A stretch of DNA of 64,000 bases, taken from sequence record OK272484.1. One strand, 5' to 3'. Shown in pieces: positions 25,232-62,749 of this stretch. The notes beneath the pieces are model-generated. The model worked only from the letters and a program-made list of their open reading frames with translations. It was not told the DNA's origin and made no database searches. Source of the DNA: Escherichia phage JLBYU22. Position numbers and translations under genes: made by a program. Numbering within the stretch: position 1 is the stretch's first letter; each line of letters begins with the position of its first letter.

Positions 25232-25299
25232 TTTTATTCTCCGAGATGTTTAATTGCGGTACAGGTATATAATATCATATCCTGTACCAAAGTAAACAA

Positions 25300-25632
25300 T
25301 TATTTTACTACTTTCCAGTGCTGCATGTCAAGTTTACCAACTTTTTTCATCTTCTCAATTAAGCGTTCTGCGCGTTGGCGAGCTGTAACATAATGCCATT
25401 CACCTAATTCATTTTGTTCAATTTTTCCAACGATTACTGTGTTCAATTCATAAATCCAACCAGTAAAGAAATTATGAACTTGAATTGTAAAGGTGAAATC
25501 TGTTCCCATACCTTCTGTTGTTTCTACTTCAATAATATCACCTTCAACTGCCATTAAGAACCACATAGTTTCATCATATTTACCGTTGAAGCATTTAGTT
25601 TTAACTGTAGCGTTCAGATTAATCGTTTTCAT
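25300..25632 (-). CDS. Hypothetical protein
   Basis: 110-aa ORF. Confidence 0.55.
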   Translation of the reverse strand: MKTINLNATVKTKCFNGKYDETMWFLMAVEGDIIEVETTEGMGTDFTFTIQVHNFFTGWIYELNTVIVGKIEQNELGEWHYVTARQRAERLIEKMKKVGKLDMQHWKVVK

Positions 25633-25719
25633 TTTATTCTCCTTTGTTTGTGTAAGATAATACTATCACAAAGGAACCATACTGTAAACAACTTTGTGCA
25701 ATCTTTGGAAAATAAAAAA

Positions 25720-25737
25720 GGACTCCCGAAGGAGTCC
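25720..25737 (-). terminator. Rho-independent terminator after the small basic protein gene
   Basis: GGACTCC-CGAA-GGAGTCC 7-bp stem followed by T-tract on minus strand. Confidence 0.65.
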
Positions 25738-25742
25738 TCAAC

Positions 25743-28523: not shown

Positions 28524-28585
28524 TTTGTTTTCCTCATTTGTTTTGGTAGAGCTATAATATCACAACTCTACCAAAAAGTAAACTA

Positions 28586-39986: not shown

Positions 39987-40229
39987 TCAAACAGACTTTT
40001 TCACAATTTTCCAATCAGCTTTAAACTGCTCGACGTCAGAATGGTAAATCCAAAATCCTGCGCTTTCTCCGTCTTCATAAAGAGGACATCCATCGCATTC
40101 ATCTTCCCATCCCATATCACGTAAAAGATGTTCAGCTTTTTCAACAAGTTCAGAATCTTTACCGATGATATTAAAATACCATTTACCTCTAACTTCCGAA
40201 TCTTTGATGCTCTGACGTTGTAATCTCAT
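39987..40229 (-). CDS. Hypothetical protein (position of frd.3)
   Basis: 80-aa ORF with early promoter upstream. Confidence 0.5.
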   Translation of the reverse strand: MRLQRQSIKDSEVRGKWYFNIIGKDSELVEKAEHLLRDMGWEDECDGCPLYEDGESAGFWIYHSDVEQFKADWKIVKKSV

Positions 40230-40240
40230 TTTATTCTCCT

Positions 40241-40300
40241 CAGTAGTTGATAGGGTAATAGTATCACACTACTACCCTGATGTAAACTACTTTTTGAAAG
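40241..40300 (-). promoter_or_regulatory. Early promoter cassette (family 2): GTTTAC -35, 18-nt spacer, TACTAT-type -10, conserved leader ...CTATCAACTACTG
   Basis: Shares leader and -35 region with elements near 40965, 58105, 61411, 62140. Confidence 0.5.
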
Positions 40301-40948: not shown

Positions 40949-40964
40949 CAGCAGTATTGCCGAT

Positions 40965-41025
40965 AGTTGTATAGTACCATGGAAGAACAGGGATGTAAAC
41001 AGTTTTGTGAAAAAATTTTTGAAAT
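40965..41025 (-). promoter_or_regulatory. Early promoter cassette (family 2) with A/T-rich UP element
   Basis: Minus strand ttttttatttcaaaaattttttcacaaaactGTTTACA...TACTATacaactatc. Confidence 0.55.
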
Positions 41026-41031
41026 AAAAAA

Positions 41032-41050
41032 GGGGACCCTAGAGGTCCCC
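41032..41050 (-). terminator. Rho-independent terminator after gene 32
   Basis: GGGGACC-CTAGA-GGTCCCC hairpin followed by T7 tract on minus strand. Confidence 0.7.
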
Positions 41051-50076: not shown

Positions 50077-53000
50077 ATGGCTACTTTAAAACAAATACAA
50101 TTTAAAAGAAGCAAAACCGCAGGTGCACGTCCTGCTGCTTCAGTATTAGCCGAAGGTGAATTGGCTATAAACTTAAAAGATAGAACAATTTTTACTAAAG
50201 ATGATTCAGGAAATATCATTGACTTAAGCATTTCCGCTGGCGGTAATATCAGTGGAAATATCACTCAAACTGGTGATTATACACAGACTGGAAAATTTAA
50301 TTTAATTGGCCCGCAGATTATAGCAAGTGGTGGATATATTGAGTTTAATTATCGTACTACTGGAAGTGGGGCTTGGTCCGGTCAACACACTGCAAAAGCT
50401 CCAATTTTTGTAGATTTAAGCTCAGCTACTTCCACATCTGAATATAATCCTATAATTAAACAGCGCTTTAAAGATGGAACTTTTTCATTAGGTACTTTAG
50501 TTTCTGAAGGTTCGTTAAAGATTCATTATATTGATGAAACTGGTCAATCTAAATATTGGACATTTGCGCGCTCAGGTAATTTTCAAGTTGATTCTGGTAA
50601 TTTATTAGTATCTGGTGGGTATTTAGTCGCTCAGAGTAATATTGAAACAAGAACAGGTTCTTTGATTGGTCCATCTGTTGTAACTAAAAATATTTCATTT
50701 GATACGAAAGCGTTTGGACAATACGATTCGCAGTCATTAGTTCAATATGTTTATCCTGGAACTGGTGAAACAAACGGAATTAATTACCTTCGTAAATTCC
50801 GTGCAAAATCCGGTGGTACGATTTATCATGAATTAGCTTCTGCACAAACCGGAAAAAGTGATGAACTGTCTTGGTGGACCGGTAATACAGCCGTTAATAA
50901 ACAAATGGGCCTTCGCAATGATGGGTCTTTAGTATTGCGACGCTCACTCGCAATTGGTACAATTACAACAGATGAAAACATTAATAATTACGGCTCCACT
51001 GGAGCAATGGGTGAATGCTATATAGTCATTGGAGATGCCGCAACTGGTATATCATATAAAAGATCTGGTGTATATGATTTAGTTGCTAATGGTCTTTCTA
51101 TCGCGTCTATTACTCCTGACAGTTTCCGTAGTACTCGTAAAGCATTATTTGGACGCTCAGAAGATCAAGGTACAACATGGATTATGCCTGGAACGAATGC
51201 TGCATTTTTATCAGTTCAAACACAGGCTGATGAAAACAGTGCTGGAGACGGTCAGACACATATTGGCTATAATTCAGGCGGAAAAATGAACCACTATTTC
51301 CGCGGTAAAGGCAAAACTAATATTAATACTCAAGAAGGCATGGAAGTTAACCCGGGTATTCTTAAAATAGTAACCGGTGCAAATAATGTAATGTTTTATG
51401 CTGATGGCGGTATTACATCCACTAAGCAGCTTTCAATATATAATGGTGTATATTTAGCAGCTAATAATTCTACTGCTGGGCTAACATTCGCTCCAACTAC
51501 TACAATTGATGGCACTAAGCAAATTTTGTGGGAAGGTGGTAAGCGCGCTGGACAGAATAAAAGCTATGTAACTGTTAAAGCGTGGGGTAATTCATTTAAC
51601 GCATCTGGCGATCGTAATCGTGAAACAGTTTTTGAAGTAGCTGACGGACAAGGTTATTATTTTTATTCCCAGCGTGTAGCCCCAAGCGGCTCAGAAACTA
51701 CTGGTCCTGTTGTAACTCAGTTTGCTGGAGCTGTTAATGCTAGAGGAAGTATTATTACTGACGGAAGTTTTAAAGTTAATGGATTGAGCACTTTAGTCGG
51801 TAATGTTACCATGTCTAATGGTTTGTTTGTCCAAGGTGGTTCTTCTATTACTGGACAAGTTAAAATCGGCGGAACTGCAGATGCATTAAGAATTTGGAAT
51901 GCTGAATATGGTGCAATTTTCCGTCGTTCTGAAGATAAGCTTTATATTATTCCAACCCCGCAGAATGCTGGTGAATCAGGTGGTATTTCTAATTTACGTC
52001 CGTTCTATATTACATTAAGTACTGGTAAAGTTTCCATGGATCATGATGTAGATATCGGCGGCGGTAGATTTAAAGTAGAAGTGGCTGGAACTACGGCTGG
52101 TCAACGTATTATAGTTAATGCAGCGAGCGATGCTATTAGAATAAATGCTCCAACACAAGAGTCTTCTAACTTCATTCAAGGACGTAAGGCTGATGTGAAT
52201 AAATGGTATTTGGGTATTGGCGATGGCGGCAACGTCGTTCGTATGCACAGCTACACATATTCACATGGTATTGCATTAAATTCTGATTCTGTCGATATTA
52301 CTAAGCCTCTTAAAGTCGGAAACGCCCAACTAGGAACTGACGGTAATATTACCAATGGTTCAGGAAACTTTGCCAACTTAAATACCACGTTAAATCGTAA
52401 AGTTAATTCTGGATTTATTACTTATGGAGCAACCTCTGGATGGTATAAGTTTGCAACAGTAACAATGCCACAATCCACTTCGACAGTCTTCTTTAAAATA
52501 GTTGGAGGTTCTGGATTTAATAGCGGATTATTCACACAATGTAATATTGCTGAAATTGTTTTACGTACTAGTAATGAAAGACCTGCTGACTTAAATGCTG
52601 CATTATACACAAGAACAATTGGAGCTGCATTTAAAGATATTGCAGTTAATAACGTCTCTGGAGATACATATGACATTTATGTTTCTGCTGGAACATATTG
52701 TAATCAATTGGCTTGTGAGTGGTCATGTACCGAAAATGCTACTGTTAGTGTTATTGGTATTAACTCATCTACACAATCGCCTGTAGATGCTCTTCCAGAC
52801 ACAGCAGTTAACGGTCAAGTTGCTAATGTTCTTAATAACTTGGTTGATCGCGGTAAAGTTAAGCGTTATGAAGCCGATTCTGAAATAGCTATTAATAGCC
52901 AAACCGGTATTCGTATCAGAAGCAACAGCGATAAAACTGGTTCTGTTGCTACAATGCTACGAAATGATGGCGGTAGTTTTTATATTCTGTTTACAGATAA

Positions 53001-53838
53001 AAATGCCACCGATGGCGCAGCAACTGTTAATGGCGATTGGAATAGTAAACGTCCTTTCGCAATTAACTTAACAACCGGCAAAGTGATGATGAATAATGGC
53101 ATAGCTGTTCGCAGCGCTGCTTTATTCTATAATAGCATAAACGTCAAAGATAATGGTTCTATTAACTTTGATAAATCAGGCGCTAACCCGAGAAATATGA
53201 GAATATTTCATGCTGGCGATGCTTCTCGCGGTAACCGTATTGAAATTGCCGATGAAACTAACTATATTGCTTACTTTGAAAAAACACCAGGTGGAGCTAA
53301 TCGCTTTGTAGTAAATAATGCTACTGTAGCTGGTGTTAATCAAATGAATTCATTTGGTATTAACATCAATAACGCACTTGGTGGAAATAGTATAGCGTTT
53401 GGCGATAATGACACTGGTATTAAGCAAAATGGCGATGGATTATTAGACATATATGCGAATGGTGTACAGACTTTCCGTTTCCAAAACGGTGATTTGTACT
53501 CATACAAAAATATAAATGCTCCAAACGTTTATACTCGTTCTGATATTCGTTTAAAATCTAACTTCAAACCTATCGAAAATGCACTTGATAAAGTTGAAAA
53601 ACTTAACGGTGTCATTTACGATAAAGCTGAATATATCGGTGGAGAGGCAATTGAAACTGAAGCGGGTATTGTAGCTCAAACGTTACAAGACGTTTTACCA
53701 GAAGCCGTCCGTGAAACAGAAGACAGCAAGGGTAATAAAATACTCACTGTTTCTTCTCAAGCCCAGATTGCTCTTCTGGTTGAAGCTGTGAAAACGCTTT
53801 CTTCTCGTGTAAAAGAACTTGAATCTAAACTTATGTAA
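50077..53838 (+). CDS. 37: Long tail fibre distal subunit gp37 (T2/T6-type, 1253 aa)
   Basis: N-terminus conserved with T4 gp37; longer than T4 (1026 aa); C-terminal segment resembles an intramolecular chaperone-like domain. Confidence 0.9.
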   Translation: MATLKQIQFKRSKTAGARPAASVLAEGELAINLKDRTIFTKDDSGNIIDLSISAGGNISGNITQTGDYTQTGKFNLIGPQIIASGGYIEFNYRTTGSGAWSGQHTAKAPIFVDLSSATSTSEYNPIIKQRFKDGTFSLGTLVSEGSLKIHYIDETGQSKYWTFARSGNFQVDSGNLLVSGGYLVAQSNIETRTGSLIGPSVVTKNISFDTKAFGQYDSQSLVQYVYPGTGETNGINYLRKFRAKSGGTIYHELASAQTGKSDELSWWTGNTAVNKQMGLRNDGSLVLRRSLAIGTITTDENINNYGSTGAMGECYIVIGDAATGISYKRSGVYDLVANGLSIASITPDSFRSTRKALFGRSEDQGTTWIMPGTNAAFLSVQTQADENSAGDGQTHIGYNSGGKMNHYFRGKGKTNINTQEGMEVNPGILKIVTGANNVMFYADGGITSTKQLSIYNGVYLAANNSTAGLTFAPTTTIDGTKQILWEGGKRAGQNKSYVTVKAWGNSFNASGDRNRETVFEVADGQGYYFYSQRVAPSGSETTGPVVTQFAGAVNARGSIITDGSFKVNGLSTLVGNVTMSNGLFVQGGSSITGQVKIGGTADALRIWNAEYGAIFRRSEDKLYIIPTPQNAGESGGISNLRPFYITLSTGKVSMDHDVDIGGGRFKVEVAGTTAGQRIIVNAASDAIRINAPTQESSNFIQGRKADVNKWYLGIGDGGNVVRMHSYTYSHGIALNSDSVDITKPLKVGNAQLGTDGNITNGSGNFANLNTTLNRKVNSGFITYGATSGWYKFATVTMPQSTSTVFFKIVGGSGFNSGLFTQCNIAEIVLRTSNERPADLNAALYTRTIGAAFKDIAVNNVSGDTYDIYVSAGTYCNQLACEWSCTENATVSVIGINSSTQSPVDALPDTAVNGQVANVLNNLVDRGKVKRYEADSEIAINSQTGIRIRSNSDKTGSVATMLRNDGGSFYILFTDKNATDGAATVNGDWNSKRPFAINLTTGKVMMNNGIAVRSAALFYNSINVKDNGSINFDKSGANPRNMRIFHAGDASRGNRIEIADETNYIAYFEKTPGGANRFVVNNATVAGVNQMNSFGININNALGGNSIAFGDNDTGIKQNGDGLLDIYANGVQTFRFQNGDLYSYKNINAPNVYTRSDIRLKSNFKPIENALDKVEKLNGVIYDKAEYIGGEAIETEAGIVAQTLQDVLPEAVRETEDSKGNKILTVSSQAQIALLVEAVKTLSSRVKELESKLM

Positions 53839-53840
53839 AA

Positions 53841-53856
53841 GAGGGCTTCGGCCCTC
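53841..53856 (+). terminator. Hairpin (attenuator/terminator) between genes 37 and 38
   Basis: GAGGGC-TTCG-GCCCTC stem-loop followed by moderately T-rich sequence. Confidence 0.45.
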
Positions 53857-53868
53857 TAAGGATTTTTA

Positions 53869-54654
53869 ATGGCAATTGTAGGTGTTCCTGGCTGGATTGG
53901 TGAATCTGCCGTGAATGAAACTGGACAGCGTTGGATGGATGCTGCGATGAGAGCAGTTCGTGTTTCAGTTCCTGGTTGGATGAGCTCAATGGCTGGGCAA
54001 TCTAAAGAAGTATATTATAGCATTGGTGCTAGCAATTCTTACAATAAAGACACACTAATAAATTGGATAAAAGCCCAAGGAAGCACTCCTGTTGTTATTA
54101 CTATTACAGGAAATATTGTTTCTCAATCTACTGGTGTTCCATGCTTAGATTTTCCTAGCTCATTAACTAATGCATACGTGACACTTAATATCAATTCAGG
54201 CGTGCATGTTTGGGGCCGTGGCGGGAATGGCGGAAATAACTCTGCTGGCGGAGCAGGAGGAACTGCAATAAATAACGGAATTGGAACTAGATTACGTATT
54301 AACAACAATGGTGTTATCGCAGGCGGCGGTGGCGGCGGTGGCGGCGGATACTACTCTCCTTTTTCACAAATGAAATTGACTTTTGGCGGAGGAGGCGGTC
54401 GTCCATTTGGTGCTGCCGGTGGGTCTGCTAATATGGAACAGGGTGCTACTGCTGGTACTATTTCTGCGCCAGGTAAAGGGTCTGTCAACGGTATCTATAA
54501 TGGCGGGAATGGTGGTGATGCCGGAGCCGCAGGAGGTAAATGTAATATTCGCGGTCAAGGATCAGAATATAACGGTGGTGCTGCGGGTAAAGCTGTTACT
54601 GGTAATGCTCCAACTTGGACTAAAGTTGGCACAATATATGGTTCAAGAGTATAA
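53869..54654 (+). CDS. 38: Tail fibre tip adhesin gp38 (T2-type, glycine-rich motifs flanking variable segments)
   Basis: 261 aa; poly-Gly runs such as GGGGGGGGGYY and GGGGG; N-terminus MAIVGVPGWIG; C-terminus GSRV. Confidence 0.88.
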   Translation: MAIVGVPGWIGESAVNETGQRWMDAAMRAVRVSVPGWMSSMAGQSKEVYYSIGASNSYNKDTLINWIKAQGSTPVVITITGNIVSQSTGVPCLDFPSSLTNAYVTLNINSGVHVWGRGGNGGNNSAGGAGGTAINNGIGTRLRINNNGVIAGGGGGGGGGYYSPFSQMKLTFGGGGGRPFGAAGGSANMEQGATAGTISAPGKGSVNGIYNGGNGGDAGAAGGKCNIRGQGSEYNGGAAGKAVTGNAPTWTKVGTIYGSRV

Positions 54655-54686
54655 TTTTTGAATAAATATCCTTAAAAGGAGGGTCT

Positions 54687-55343: not shown

Positions 55344-55616
55344 TTATTTGTTCGTATACATCTCTAGATATCGATATACACCCTCAAAACCCTCGTTGAA
55401 TTCGTCGATGAGGGTTTTCTTATCTTCTTGAGTTAATTCAGAAACAATTTTACGGAATGAATTCTGATTTAATTTTCTACCTTCATGCGTTACTCCAATC
55501 TCATTCAGAAATGCAATAAAATTAGCACGATTCTCAACAATATCTTCTCTGGAAAATTTAATCAAAATAGACGCAACAGTAATAATTTCACGAACTGTAT
55601 CAATGTTTTTATTCAT
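55344..55616 (-). CDS. asiA: Anti-sigma70 factor AsiA
   Basis: 90 aa, sequence as recalled for T4 AsiA. Confidence 0.9.
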   Translation of the reverse strand: MNKNIDTVREIITVASILIKFSREDIVENRANFIAFLNEIGVTHEGRKLNQNSFRKIVSELTQEDKKTLIDEFNEGFEGVYRYLEMYTNK

Positions 55617-55628
55617 TAACTATACCAC

Positions 55629-55781
55629 TCAATTAGTTGACTTTGTTATAATATCATCAGACGCTTGATTTGTAAACTGGTCTGTGTTATTTTCTTCAAA
55701 AATTTTTTCTACGAATTCCTTGAACGACTTACGTTCCTGAGCTACATTATGCTCGATTACTTTTTCAAGATTATGACTCAT
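55629..55781 (-). CDS. Small hypothetical protein (50 aa) coupled to arn
   Basis: ATG overlaps arn stop (ATGA); not in ORF track. Confidence 0.35.
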   Translation of the reverse strand: MSHNLEKVIEHNVAQERKSFKEFVEKIFEENNTDQFTNQASDDIITKSTN

Positions 55782-57435: not shown

Positions 57436-58071
57436 TCACAGTTCAGATGCTACAGTGATTACAGCTTCAATGTTTTCTGCCGAGCGTTTAATGTCAAGAT
57501 ACACATTACCGTTTTTAGCGATTTTACAAGACATTCCGATATCAGTAAATTTCTGAATATGATGTTCCATCATTTTGTATCCAAAAATTCGCATGTTTCC
57601 ATTGTTGTTAATTTCAAAATTGCGAATTCCGTGAGTGCGTTTTTCTAAAATAGCAAGATAATTACTACGATAAGTTTCAACCTTTTTAAGAACAAATCCA
57701 TTTTCATCTAAAAGTTTTAACATGAGATCTTTATCTTCTTCCATATCGGAAGTAATCTCGCGAGCTTTACGAGTAGCACGTTTTTTCAGAAGTTCTGGAG
57801 CATTTTCCTGCGCATATAAAGTTGCTGCGTTTGAAATAATATCTTGCGCTTCGCCTGTGATGATTAATCCATCACCTGATTTCTCTACCAGGCCTTTTTT
57901 AATCAATACCCCAATATTACTATTAACTACTGCGTTACCTAAATCTGGATGCACCTCACGAACTTCTGCAGCTGTAATGAAATCTTTCTTAGCAATGGTA
58001 ATTAAAATCGCAGCAGTTTTTTCATTCAGAACATCGTTAGAAGCTTTGATGATGTAAGTTACTTTAGACAT
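57436..58071 (-). CDS. motA: Middle transcription activator MotA
   Basis: 211 aa, same as T4 MotA. Confidence 0.92.
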   Translation of the reverse strand: MSKVTYIIKASNDVLNEKTAAILITIAKKDFITAAEVREVHPDLGNAVVNSNIGVLIKKGLVEKSGDGLIITGEAQDIISNAATLYAQENAPELLKKRATRKAREITSDMEEDKDLMLKLLDENGFVLKKVETYRSNYLAILEKRTHGIRNFEINNNGNMRIFGYKMMEHHIQKFTDIGMSCKIAKNGNVYLDIKRSAENIEAVITVASEL

Positions 58072-58104
58072 TTTCTAATCTCCGTAATTCTGTATCAGTA
58101 GTTG

Positions 58105-58170
58105 ATAGTTGTATAGTACCACAGTATGCTTTGGTTGTAAACCGTTTTGTGAAAAAAATTTTTGAAATAA
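58105..58170 (-). promoter_or_regulatory. Early promoter cassette (family 2) for motA with UP element
   Basis: Minus strand ttttttatttcaaaaatttttttcacaaaacgGTTTACA, 17-nt spacer, TACTATacaactatcaactactg. Confidence 0.55.
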
Positions 58171-58174
58171 AAAA

Positions 58175-58194
58175 GGGAGAGCCTCGGCTCTCCC
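58175..58194 (-). terminator. Rho-independent terminator immediately upstream of the motA promoter
   Basis: GGGAGAGCC-TC-GGCTCTCCC hairpin followed by T-tract on minus strand. Confidence 0.7.
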
Positions 58195-58199
58195 TAAAA

Positions 58200-58349
58200 T
58201 TACTGCATGACTGTGATAACTGTCATGATAACACGTTGAATTCCGAACGCAAGAAGACCTCCTGCTACGGCTGGAACAACACCTAAACCCGCCAGTAAAA
58301 TGCTACCGGATACTAATGCAGCGCTTGTAATACCTATAAATGGACTCAT
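58200..58349 (-). CDS. Small hydrophobic membrane peptide (49 aa), coupled to gene 52
   Basis: MSPFIGITSAALVSGSILLAGLGVVPAVAGGLLAFGIQ...; ATG overlaps gene 52 stop; not in ORF track. Confidence 0.5.
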   Translation of the reverse strand: MSPFIGITSAALVSGSILLAGLGVVPAVAGGLLAFGIQRVIMTVITVMQ

Positions 58350-61390: not shown

Positions 61391-61410
61391 TTTCTGTTCC
61401 TCCGTAGTTG

Positions 61411-61455
61411 ATAGGGTAATAATACCACAGAGGAACAGTCTTGTAAACAACTTTT
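61411..61455 (-). promoter_or_regulatory. Early promoter cassette (family 2)
   Basis: GTTTAC -35, 18-nt spacer, TATTAT -10, leader ...CTATCAACTACGG. Confidence 0.5.
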
Positions 61456-61633: not shown

Positions 61634-61897
61634 TCATAACTCAATCTCAGCGATTTTCATTTCATTACTATTAATAGCCGCTTTAAGACTATCTGAAAGA
61701 ATTACATTCCAGTGGTCATTCATATGACCATTGACTAAGCGTGTAATTTCTTCGGGAGTTGAAAAATAAGGCGTATCAGACTCCCAATGCGATAGTCCCA
61801 AGCGAGTATAAATCATACCTTCATCATCGCTAGAATATTCAACTGACACAAACTCATCAGTTATTTTATGTTTAGCGTAATAAAATTTAAATTTCAT
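61634..61897 (-). CDS. Hypothetical protein
   Basis: 87-aa ORF. Confidence 0.5.
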   Translation of the reverse strand: MKFKFYYAKHKITDEFVSVEYSSDDEGMIYTRLGLSHWESDTPYFSTPEEITRLVNGHMNDHWNVILSDSLKAAINSNEMKIAEIEL

Positions 61898-61903
61898 TTT
61901 TAC

Positions 61904-62122
61904 TCAATAATCCGCTAAAAGATCGACGATTGCATCACGAAGACACTTATTCGCAATACGTTTAAGAGCAATTTCAGTTTCTGGAGCATTTTGAATAATC
62001 ATTGAATTCAATTCAGCCTCAGCAAACTGAAGTTCTTTAATTAATTCAGCTTTATATTTTCCTTGCCCTTTCTTAGCTTTTGCTCGTTTTAGTTCAGCTG
62101 TAGTAAACATTTTATTCTCCAA
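61904..62122 (-). CDS. Hypothetical protein
   Basis: 72-aa ORF with early promoter upstream. Confidence 0.5.
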   Translation of the reverse strand: MENKMFTTAELKRAKAKKGQGKYKAELIKELQFAEAELNSMIIQNAPETEIALKRIANKCLRDAIVDLLADY

Positions 62123-62139
62123 ATCCGTATCAGTTGATA

Positions 62140-62190
62140 GTTGTATAGTACCACAGTCCTTGTGGTATGTAAACCGTTTTGTGAAAATTT
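62140..62190 (-). promoter_or_regulatory. Early promoter cassette (family 2)
   Basis: Minus strand aaaattttcacaaaacgGTTTACA...TACTATacaactatcaactgatacg. Confidence 0.5.
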
Positions 62191-62191
62191 T

Positions 62192-62749
62192 TTAAATGGA
62201 AAGATACCATCCGTTGTAGTTGCTTTTTCTTACAACCTTACGAAGGTCTTCTCTATCACCAATGAACTTCGGAGTGTACTGGATGACACCTGGGTGAATT
62301 TCTTTAGTGTTGAATATAATTATACAGTCAGCGACTTGATGATTTAGAATGGGCCCTAGATTTATTCCAGAACCGTATGGATACTCTCCGCTGCATCCTG
62401 TTGTTACAGAAATCCAACGCGAGTCAGTTTGATGTGTCTTAACTTCTACGCGAAGTCCGCAGTATCTTGGGTGCGCCAATACATCCCATGCGTATGTATA
62501 CGGGTCATTAACATCCTCTTGACCTTTGTTAACATACCCGCTTAGCCAATCTGCAACAAAAAACTCTGCGTACACCGCGATACGGCATCTTTCAATAACT
62601 TCTGCTTTATCCTGATTTGGATTTTGTTTTAAAGAGTATCTTGCTGTATCAGCAATTTTGACCTTCATTTCACTAGTCAAGTCACTGTTCGATAGGGTAA
62701 ATGTCGGAATCTGAAATAGTCTCTGTAAACCCGGATTCGTTTTCTGCAT
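62192..62749 (-). CDS. denB: Endonuclease IV
   Basis: 185 aa, same as T4 DenB; position next to rIIB. Confidence 0.8.
   Translation of the reverse strand: MQKTNPGLQRLFQIPTFTLSNSDLTSEMKVKIADTARYSLKQNPNQDKAEVIERCRIAVYAEFFVADWLSGYVNKGQEDVNDPYTYAWDVLAHPRYCGLRVEVKTHQTDSRWISVTTGCSGEYPYGSGINLGPILNHQVADCIIIFNTKEIHPGVIQYTPKFIGDREDLRKVVRKSNYNGWYLSI

Follow-up and report, generated by a model that had tools for sequence, protein, structure and literature searches.

A terminator and an early promoter between motA.1 and motA

The stretch of DNA analysed here (the window) comprises 64,000 nucleotides of Escherichia phage JLBYU22 (OK272484.1), and local BLAST aligned the whole of it colinearly with T4 105,335-168,903. 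Around the focal site, a 1.5-kb segment that spans topoisomerase gene 52, a small ORF and motA shares 99.9% identity with Shigella phage A2, and hundreds of Tequatrovirus genomes match it at 95–97%. Sequence comparison identifies the window as a segment of a Tequatrovirus genome, corresponding to about T4 105–169 kb. motA.1 and motA flank the focal interval, just as they do in T4. Both genes are read from the minus strand, as are all window features given below: motA.1 (58200..58349, 49 aa) ends with a stop codon at 58202-58200, and motA (57436..58071, 211 aa) begins with an ATG at 58071.

The motA.1 stop codon is followed by a predicted intrinsic terminator, a hairpin with a 9-bp stem (AGGGAGAGCCGAGGCTCTCCCT; 58174..58195) and a dG of about -17 kcal/mol. 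A T-run occupies 58173-58168 (tail TTTTTATT), and the stem ends 31 nt upstream of the GTTTAC of the promoter that drives motA. The core of this early promoter (58113..58142) consists of GTTTAC at 58142-58137, an extended -10, TGG, at 58121-58119 and a TACTAT -10 at 58118-58113; it is preceded by an A/T-rich UP-element region (58143..58173, …AAAAATTTTTTTCACAAAACG) whose tract proper, at 58163-58143, is found again at 41021-41001 and 62193-62175. Downstream of the -10, and with the start site placed at the seventh base after it, lie the untranscribed discriminator ACAACT at -6 to -1 (58107..58112), the initial transcribed sequence ATCAACTAC at +1 to +9 (58098..58106) and a Shine-Dalgarno sequence, GGAGATTAGAA (58073..58083), that is also a RegB/S1-type site with a 10/11 match to GGAGRAYARAA.

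At the focal site, then, the terminator of motA.1 is succeeded by the early promoter of motA. In phage Lutter (NC_054924) the very same position is annotated with a terminator and a promoter, and T4 carries an almost identical cassette upstream of motA (T4 163750-163600, with the promoter at T4 163644). The T4 motA early promoter has the same position, orientation, downstream gene and elements (UP, GTTTAC, TGn, TAYTAT and an A start), and nothing substantive distinguishes the two beyond a few substitutions and indels in the UP tract. Rfam covariance models, applied at the gathering threshold, matched no family anywhere in the window.

T4-type early promoters across the window

The original prediction had grouped the motA promoter with four other minus-strand sites as a second family of early promoters sharing GTTTACA, a TACTAT or TATTAT -10 and a conserved leader. 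All five are real, with -35 and -10 elements where it had placed them (58113, 40971, 40258, 61419 and 62145). The frd.3 early promoter (40956..41000) has GTTTAC at 41000-40995, TACTAT at 40976-40971, the discriminator ACAACT and a start region, ATCGGCAAT (40964-40956), that matches the leader only in part. The frd.1 cassette (40229..40287) combines GTTTAC at 40287-40282, TACTAT at 40263-40258 and the discriminator TACCCT with a leader made up of ATCAACTAC at 40251-40243 and GGAGAATAAAA at 40239-40229; its -10 is bracketed by the inverted repeat AGGGTA/TACCCT (dG -15.2, z -3.4). In the ndd.4-type cassette (61394..61448), GTTTAC at 61448-61443 and TATTAT at 61424-61419 are followed by TACCCT and by ATCAACTAC at 61412-61404. 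The fifth site is a cassette upstream of two extra ORFs (62110..62193), with a UP tract at 62193-62175, GTTTAC at 62174-62169, TACTAT at 62150-62145 and ACAACT; its leader carries ATCAACTGA at 62138-62130 and GGAGAATAAAA at 62120-62110. The long A/T-rich UP element attributed to three of the sites was found as described, the tract ttttcacaaaac adjoining GTTTAC at 58142, 41000 and 62174.

A motif search of the window confirmed these sites and added copies, at 55648, 44272, 28554, 25269 and 25660, that had been missed. The copy at 55648 (55648..55677, GTTTAC…TATTAT, start region GTCAACTAA) is the asiA early promoter, the ortholog of T4 161182; three others lie at 44301-44272, 28583-28554 and 25297-25269. 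The copy at 25660 belongs to a further terminator–promoter module (25660..25739), in which a hairpin (GAGGACTCCTTCGGGAGTCCTT; 25739-25718) precedes a GTTTAC…TAGTAT promoter (25689-25660) that drives the 30.8 ortholog. The pattern GTTTACA-N16-19-TAYTAT matches the window six times, always on the minus strand, against 0.02 matches expected and a maximum of one in 100 shuffles. GTTTAC(A), followed at N18 from the C by TAYTAT, is common to all five sites of the original prediction and to 55648.

In T4 early promoters GTTTAC is placed at -36 to -31 (PMC1524935), with a 17-nt classical spacer between it and a TAnnAT -10. A scan of the full T4 genome for GTTTAC-N17–19-TAnnAT returned 35 sites on the strand of the early genes. 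The profile built from the 33 GTTTAC sites with the modal spacing concentrates information in the A/T-rich UP region (-54 to -40, with A at -40 in 94% of sites), the -35, the TGn element (G at -14 in 85%) and the TAYTAT -10. Positions -3 to +8 carry a further 0.3-0.6 bit each, with the consensus aCTATCAAnTA; 'additional regions of consensus' have been stated for T4 early promoters (PMC2988021). By sequence the window sites are T4-type early sigma-70 promoters with a UP element, GTTTAC, TGn and TAYTAT, which upholds the earlier assignment to early promoters. The proposed second family dissolves into the mainstream T-even early-promoter consensus, with mosaic sub-variants.

Terminator–promoter modules and the PeSL architecture

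Two of the sites had been described as compact modules in which a strong hairpin terminator immediately precedes the promoter. Both modules stand, each hairpin being followed by a T-run, and the module at 25739-25718 makes a third. Besides the motA.1 hairpin, the terminator of gene 32 (GGGGACCTCTAGGGTCCCC plus T-run; 41032..41050, dG -14 to -15 kcal/mol) also ends its stem 31 nt upstream of GTTTAC. Five of six genomes share a predicted terminator at this place, after gene 32 (Nolan 2006). With their GC-rich stems and T-runs, and with the motA.1 hairpin following a stop codon, the two are predicted Rho-independent terminators.

Terminator hairpins of -13 to -17 kcal/mol end 28-31 nt upstream of GTTTAC in 3 of the 11 window copies and 4 of the 35 T4 copies. 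Two more T4 copies have a hairpin that ends 14-16 nt upstream, so that 6 of 35 carry one in all. At a distance of 28-31 nt the T-run of the terminator passes straight into the A/T-rich UP region. The homology between the T4 module at 55355 (nrdC.10) and the motA module covers everything from terminator stem to leader.

This organization resembles the promoter-early stem-loop (PeSL) cassettes reported by Arbiol et al. (2010) and Comeau et al. (2014), which consist of a stem-loop, an AT-rich tract, an early promoter, a Shine-Dalgarno sequence and a start codon, are conserved over roughly 100 bp and recur throughout the early regions. For the PST/T4 pair, the PeSL stem-loop lies just upstream of TTTACW-N17-TAYWAT, with the Shine-Dalgarno sequence and start codon at the end (PMC4122927). 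The stem-loop of a PeSL adjoins or overlaps the early promoter; its counterparts here are the upstream hairpins at 58195-58174, 41050-41032 and 25739-25718 and stems across the promoter at 61419, 40258, 28554, 25269 and 25660. PeSLs are expected above all in hyperplastic regions, beside variable ORFs, and are further associated with indels and ORF swaps, including in the ndd.4/ndd.5 region. The likeness is incomplete, in that an upstream terminator hairpin is present in only 3 of the 11 window copies, other copies having stems inside or across the promoter, and the motA and gene 32 modules border conserved genes rather than variable ORFans. The PeSL literature that we examined does not single out an element at +1 to +9. 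Judged by their layout, the terminator–promoter fusions correspond to the published PeSL architecture and would form compact stop-then-restart modules.

The copies are mosaic. Spacers and 5′UTRs recur in identical form but in different combinations; an identical 18-nt spacer, aagcataaagctttatgg, is present in the distant cassettes at T4 146846 and 55355, and the cassettes at T4 167057, 27051 and 55355 have a common 5′UTR, ...tgatacggatttggagaat(a/g)aaatg, the identity sometimes extending down to the first codons. When the window was compared with T4, 2 of about 16 breakpoints fell inside cassette leaders (40243/40227 and 62108), and the motA and gene 32 modules sit beside conserved genes. At the two cassettes concerned, 40258 and 62145, the downstream sequence that is joined differs from that in T4. 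Between the frd.1 promoter and frd.1, T4 carries an additional ORF of 22 codons that is missing from the window, and the window has a 441-nt insertion containing two ORFs (61667–62107), located exactly at the start codon (ATG) of the 62145 cassette. Experiments on RB49 and phi1 have demonstrated PeSL mini-circle recombination (PMC2839356), and the mosaicism and indel junctions seen here agree with the PeSL recombination model. Homologous recombination between copies would spread and reshuffle the cassettes, and would account for the spacers and UTRs that copies have in common and for the indels at the edges of cassettes.

A three-part leader

To anchor the leader we used the note 'Pe133295' in the T4 record (AF158101), which refers to a promoter between cd.2 and cd.3, together with the usual 7-nt rule; the record has no annotated promoters, and this note was its single usable start-site anchor. 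The -10 of Pe133295 ends at 133302, so the start site is the seventh base after the hexamer, a spacing that we extrapolate to the window. A literature search for T4 start-site mapping by RNA-seq returned nothing relevant. With a start 7 nt after the -10, ACAACT or TACCCT would be an untranscribed discriminator at -6 to -1 and ATCAACTAC would begin the leader. The original prediction had taken the whole conserved block downstream of the -10 to be transcribed; on the Pe133295 anchor, its first six bases lie upstream of the start.

The similarity among the leaders is real and survives multiple alignment. MAFFT alignment of six copies retained, downstream of the -10, (A/T)(A/C)(A/C)(A/C)CTATCAAC–TAC(T/G)GA. 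The 11-mer CTATCAACTAC has three exact matches in the window, all of them at promoters, and five matches when one mismatch is allowed, against 0.87 expected; no shuffle reached five. The conservation is less uniform than had been proposed, the 40971 copy having only ACAACTATC in common and the 62145 copy reading ATCAACTGA.

The conserved leader had also been suggested to be a shared RNA processing or translation signal. This description suits the 3′ part of the leader, which contains GGAG, rather than the block to which it had been applied. Strong RegB/S1 sites, whose GGAG is unpaired and lies in the translation-initiation region of T4 early genes, have the consensus GG*AGRAYARAA, with the determinant lying 3′ of GGAG and no other conserved motif emerging from SELEX (PMC3014915). 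GGAGAATAAAA is an exact match to this strong consensus at 62120-62110, 40239-40229, 25642-25632 and 25242-25232, and serves as the Shine-Dalgarno sequence of these four window leaders. We regard the 3′ GGAG part as a Shine-Dalgarno sequence and predicted RegB/S1 site; such a site accounts for that part of the leader only, and not for the ACAACT|ATCAACTAC block. The leaders are unstructured: their mean z of +0.45 in the window and +0.59 in T4 places them slightly below shuffled controls in structure. A 5′-terminal hairpin, AUCA…UGAU, was considered for the motA-type leader and discarded as too weak, at about -0.6 kcal/mol within the e.8 leader.

The start-region 9-mer is early-specific and conserved across genera

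All seven occurrences of CTATCAACTAC and all eight minus-strand occurrences of ATCAACTAC in T4 are at +1 to +9 of early promoters. The distribution of matches to the 9-mer among the T4 sites is bimodal, with 9/9 in 7 of the 35 sites against a genome background of 5e-5. The 25 experimentally mapped T4 middle promoters (coordinates from PMC2988021) match 0-5 of the nine positions, which equals the genome background. The absence of the motif from middle promoters indicates that it is not a general RNA polymerase optimum and weakens a simple reading as the best start sequence; on these grounds, ATCAAC was rejected as a general sigma-70 start optimum. Nor is the exact 9-mer required for early-promoter function, since it is missing from about two thirds of early promoters. 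The consensus of NAD-capping promoters is HRRASWW around +1. The T4 start region does not fit it, and this candidate too was set aside.

The 9-mer extends to other genera. RB69 (Mosigvirus) has four exact and four near copies, and JS98 (Dhakavirus), taken as the third genus in place of PhAPEC2, which is itself another Mosigvirus, has two exact copies in the first 50 kb scanned and at least five genome-wide. The nrdC.8 promoter matches 9/9 in T4, RB69 and JS98 although its spacers are unrelated and its discriminators differ, and the denV and imm.1 promoters match 9/9 in T4 and RB69, again with unrelated spacers and different discriminators. In a collection of viral contigs, the 9-mer is preceded by 48 different spacers and 20 different discriminators and is always at +1; the ATG follows at a distance of 20 to 35 nt, and of 20-23 nt in 57 of 63 cases. 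Per-position identity between T4 and RB69 at +1 to +5 is 0.55-0.73, only moderately above the downstream baseline of about 0.36, in an ortholog set that is small (11 automatic pairs, three of them doubtful). The retention of the 9-mer across genera in which spacers and discriminators have diverged argues for a constraint of its own that is anchored to the start and specific to the early class.

A full-text literature search for the motif strings returned unrelated primer matches only. The T4 literature that we searched, which did not include the primary consensus papers (Liebig and Rüger 1989; Wilkens and Rüger; Miller et al. 2003), assigns no function to +1 to +9.

A model for the cassettes and the role of the start region

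We think it likely that the sites are T-even early-promoter cassettes, some of them fused to an upstream terminator, with a leader in three parts. Host sigma-70 RNA polymerase would read a near-consensus UP element, GTTTAC at -36 to -31, TGn and TAYTAT, and would start at an A 7 nt after the -10. Where a terminator lies upstream, it would stop transcription of the preceding block in vivo, and the host σ70 polymerase would restart at the cassette. The first part of the leader would be the untranscribed discriminator, ACAACT or TACCCT; the second, an early-class start element, C(-2) T(-1) A(+1) TCAACTAC; and the third, a short unstructured 5′UTR ending in GGAG(A/G)A(Y)A(R)AA, which would act as both Shine-Dalgarno sequence and RegB/S1 site. 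RegB/S1 cleavage at the Shine-Dalgarno sequence may later inactivate the early mRNAs. For the second part we propose, at a little short of an even chance, that C(-2)T(-1)A(+1)TCAACTAC adjusts initiation, promoter escape or the choice of start site at these very strong promoters.

A role of the start region at the RNA level is possible, if distinctly less probable: at the very 5′ end of leaders that are themselves very short, the G-free, unstructured AUCAACUAC may be a ribosome (S1) landing or standby site, a determinant of 5′-end stability or an aid in marking early mRNAs for RegB/S1 attack. RegB needs S1 (PMC3014915), the Shine-Dalgarno sequence starts directly after the 9-mer in most copies, the motif is early-specific and the low structure of the leaders relative to shuffled controls suits such a role. 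Longer leaders, of the motA, e.8, imm.1 and ndd.6 type, nevertheless keep the 9-mer at the 5′ end, away from the Shine-Dalgarno sequence, and the published RegB/S1 determinant lies 3′ of GGAG with no other motif found by SELEX (PMC3014915). As ATCAACTAC is fixed with respect to the start while its distance to the Shine-Dalgarno sequence varies from 0 to about 15 nt, a promoter or 5′-end function fits better than ribosome binding. It is improbable that the leader similarity has no function of its own and was simply copied along with the promoter by duplication, gene conversion or PeSL-type recombination. Whole spacers and 5′UTRs are indeed common to several copies (as at T4 167057, 27051 and 55355), two indel junctions coincide with cassette leaders and PeSL mini-circle recombination is established in RB49 and phi1 (PMC2839356); yet orthologous promoters in two other genera keep the 9-mer although the spacer, discriminator and distal UTR around it can no longer be aligned, the spacers and discriminators that precede it number 48 and 20, respectively, and conversion tracts limited to 9 nt with non-homologous flanks are implausible.

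Least probable, and in our view quite unlikely, is that the discriminator and ATCAACTAC are together read by a phage factor or a modified polymerase, as a determinant of Alt stimulation or of early shut-off. The element lies outside sigma-70 recognition, is early-specific and is conserved across genera, and reviews describe both the Alt effect, which cannot be traced to any one -35, TGn or -10 position, and early shut-off as mechanistically unexplained (PMC2988021, PMC3014915). Shut-off is class-wide, however, whereas the motif is present in only about a quarter to a third of early promoters, and there is no candidate binding protein. If this reading held, the element would be a regulatory mark and not a passive contributor to promoter strength: it would determine why Alt-ADP-ribosylated polymerase stimulates some T4 early promoters and not others, or how early promoters are abruptly switched off 2-4 min after infection.

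Most of what lies at these sites is already known: T4 early promoters, the gene 32 and motA.1 terminators, PeSL cassettes and RegB sites. To that extent the finding is largely ordinary, and it illustrates that real regulatory modules can be picked out from sequence alone. Its residual value lies in a 9-mer that is anchored at +1, is early-specific and recurs in three Tevenvirinae genera amid unrelated flanking promoter sequence. This 9-mer offers a cheap, defined mutational target for studies of promoter escape, Alt stimulation, early shut-off and 5′-end-dependent mRNA fate.

Promoters embedded in hairpins

About half of the cassettes lie within strong hairpins (z < -2 in 17 of the 35 T4 copies and 6 of the 11 window copies), in which the spacer pairs with the leader and Shine-Dalgarno sequence and the -10 is in the loop. 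The 61419 cassette forms a 15-bp stem, 61438-61424 with 61408-61394, of -23.2 kcal/mol (z -6.05); the focal motA copy has no embedding stem (z -0.2). Matched pairs of spacer and Shine-Dalgarno sequence are more complementary than mismatched pairs in T4 (p≈0.001), RB69 (p≈0.0002) and the window (p≈0.01), and the same comparison in JS98 was not significant. Compensatory changes were also seen, CTCCTGTAG/CTACAGGAG in one case being replaced by CTCCAGTAG/CTACTGGAG in another. Such pairing implies that RNA reading through from upstream would mask the Shine-Dalgarno sequence, and that RNA from the embedded promoter would not. In the T4 genes e, soc, 49 and I-TevI, promoters placed inside hairpins are known to release a ribosome-binding site that is otherwise sequestered; there, late promoters lie within sequences carried by early or middle transcripts. 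The cassettes described here differ in that the embedded promoter is itself early, not late.

Early promoters embedded in hairpins

Strong hairpins enclose about half of the early promoters, with the promoter spacer (between the -35 and -10) pairing with the leader and its Shine-Dalgarno sequence while the -10 lies in the loop. At the ndd.4-type cassette whose -10 ends at 61419, the hairpin has a 15-bp stem with a dG of -23.2 and a z of -6 (window 61394-61438, minus strand). Further hairpin-embedded promoters occur in the window at 40252-40279, in the 28554-28583 region, at 25232-25297 and at 25632-25689, and outside it at loci L001-L010 of T4, RB69 and JS98. Spacer/Shine-Dalgarno complementarity was greater in matched than in mismatched pairs, and compensatory changes between phages were seen in this pairing. 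Such a hairpin would mask the Shine-Dalgarno sequence in read-through RNA and leave it free in RNA started at the embedded promoter.

Upstream of cef, T4 carries an eighth copy of the cassette (locus L001; 6560-6660, minus strand). Its -35 is degenerate (TATACA), and within this copy the spacer TCAGTAGTTGAT and the start region ATCAACTACTGA show perfect reverse complementarity over 12 nt.

A small hairpin, CCACA-agga-TGTGG, lies wholly within a promoter spacer at window 62151-62168 (minus strand). The same hairpin was found again at several unrelated early promoters (T4 2429, 50944 and 167057; RB69 139234), and other T4-like genomes have the variants CACCA/GGTG and GGCAA/TTGCC, in which the pairing is kept and the sequence changed.

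Terminator-promoter modules

A third terminator-promoter module, absent from the original prediction, occupies the minus strand, with its hairpin at 25718-25739 and its promoter at 25660-25689. The hairpin, GAGGACTCCTTCGGGAGTCCTT followed by a T-run, ends 28 nt upstream of the GTTTAC…TAGTAT promoter of the 30.8 ortholog, and the leader of this module ends in GGAGAATAAAA.

The gene 32 terminator hairpin reads GGGGACC-TCTAG-GGTCCCC in the window (41032-41050) and GGGGACC-CTAGA-GGTCCCC in T4 (about 146,900-146,920). The two loops are reverse complements of one another, and this palindromic hairpin appears to have been inverted as a whole between the two phages.

Departures from T4 colinearity

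Between the early promoter and frd.1, T4 has an unannotated 22-codon hydrophobic ORF (MFAPYIMAAVMLVCLYLLIKAC; T4 146018-146107). Window 40227-40243 is without it: the promoter leader runs straight into the frd.1 Shine-Dalgarno sequence, placing the indel junction inside the cassette leader. Conversely, the window has 441 nt that T4 lacks (window 61667-62107, minus strand, against T4 167017-167025), and this segment holds two small ORFs, one of 68 aa (MFTTAELK…) and another that reads MKFKFYYAKH…. Its junction is precisely the promoter-cassette ATG, with microhomology AAATG; all that T4 retains there is the final 8 codons (MKIAEIEL*), joined to the start codon of the cassette.

Elsewhere, T4 homing-endonuclease genes and introns coincide with colinearity gaps in the window (1187/1248, 6301/6321, 34010/34013, 34686/34742, 37841/37846 and 42044/42080). 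This phage appears to lack every one of the T4 elements at these gaps: segD, segE, the nrdB intron with I-TevIII, nrdB.1/mobE, the td intron with I-TevI, and segG. The region for the distal tail fibre (equivalent to gene 37/38; window 50222-54662) aligns to T4 only in part, at about 75% identity, and otherwise not at all; hypervariability is expected of this host-range segment.
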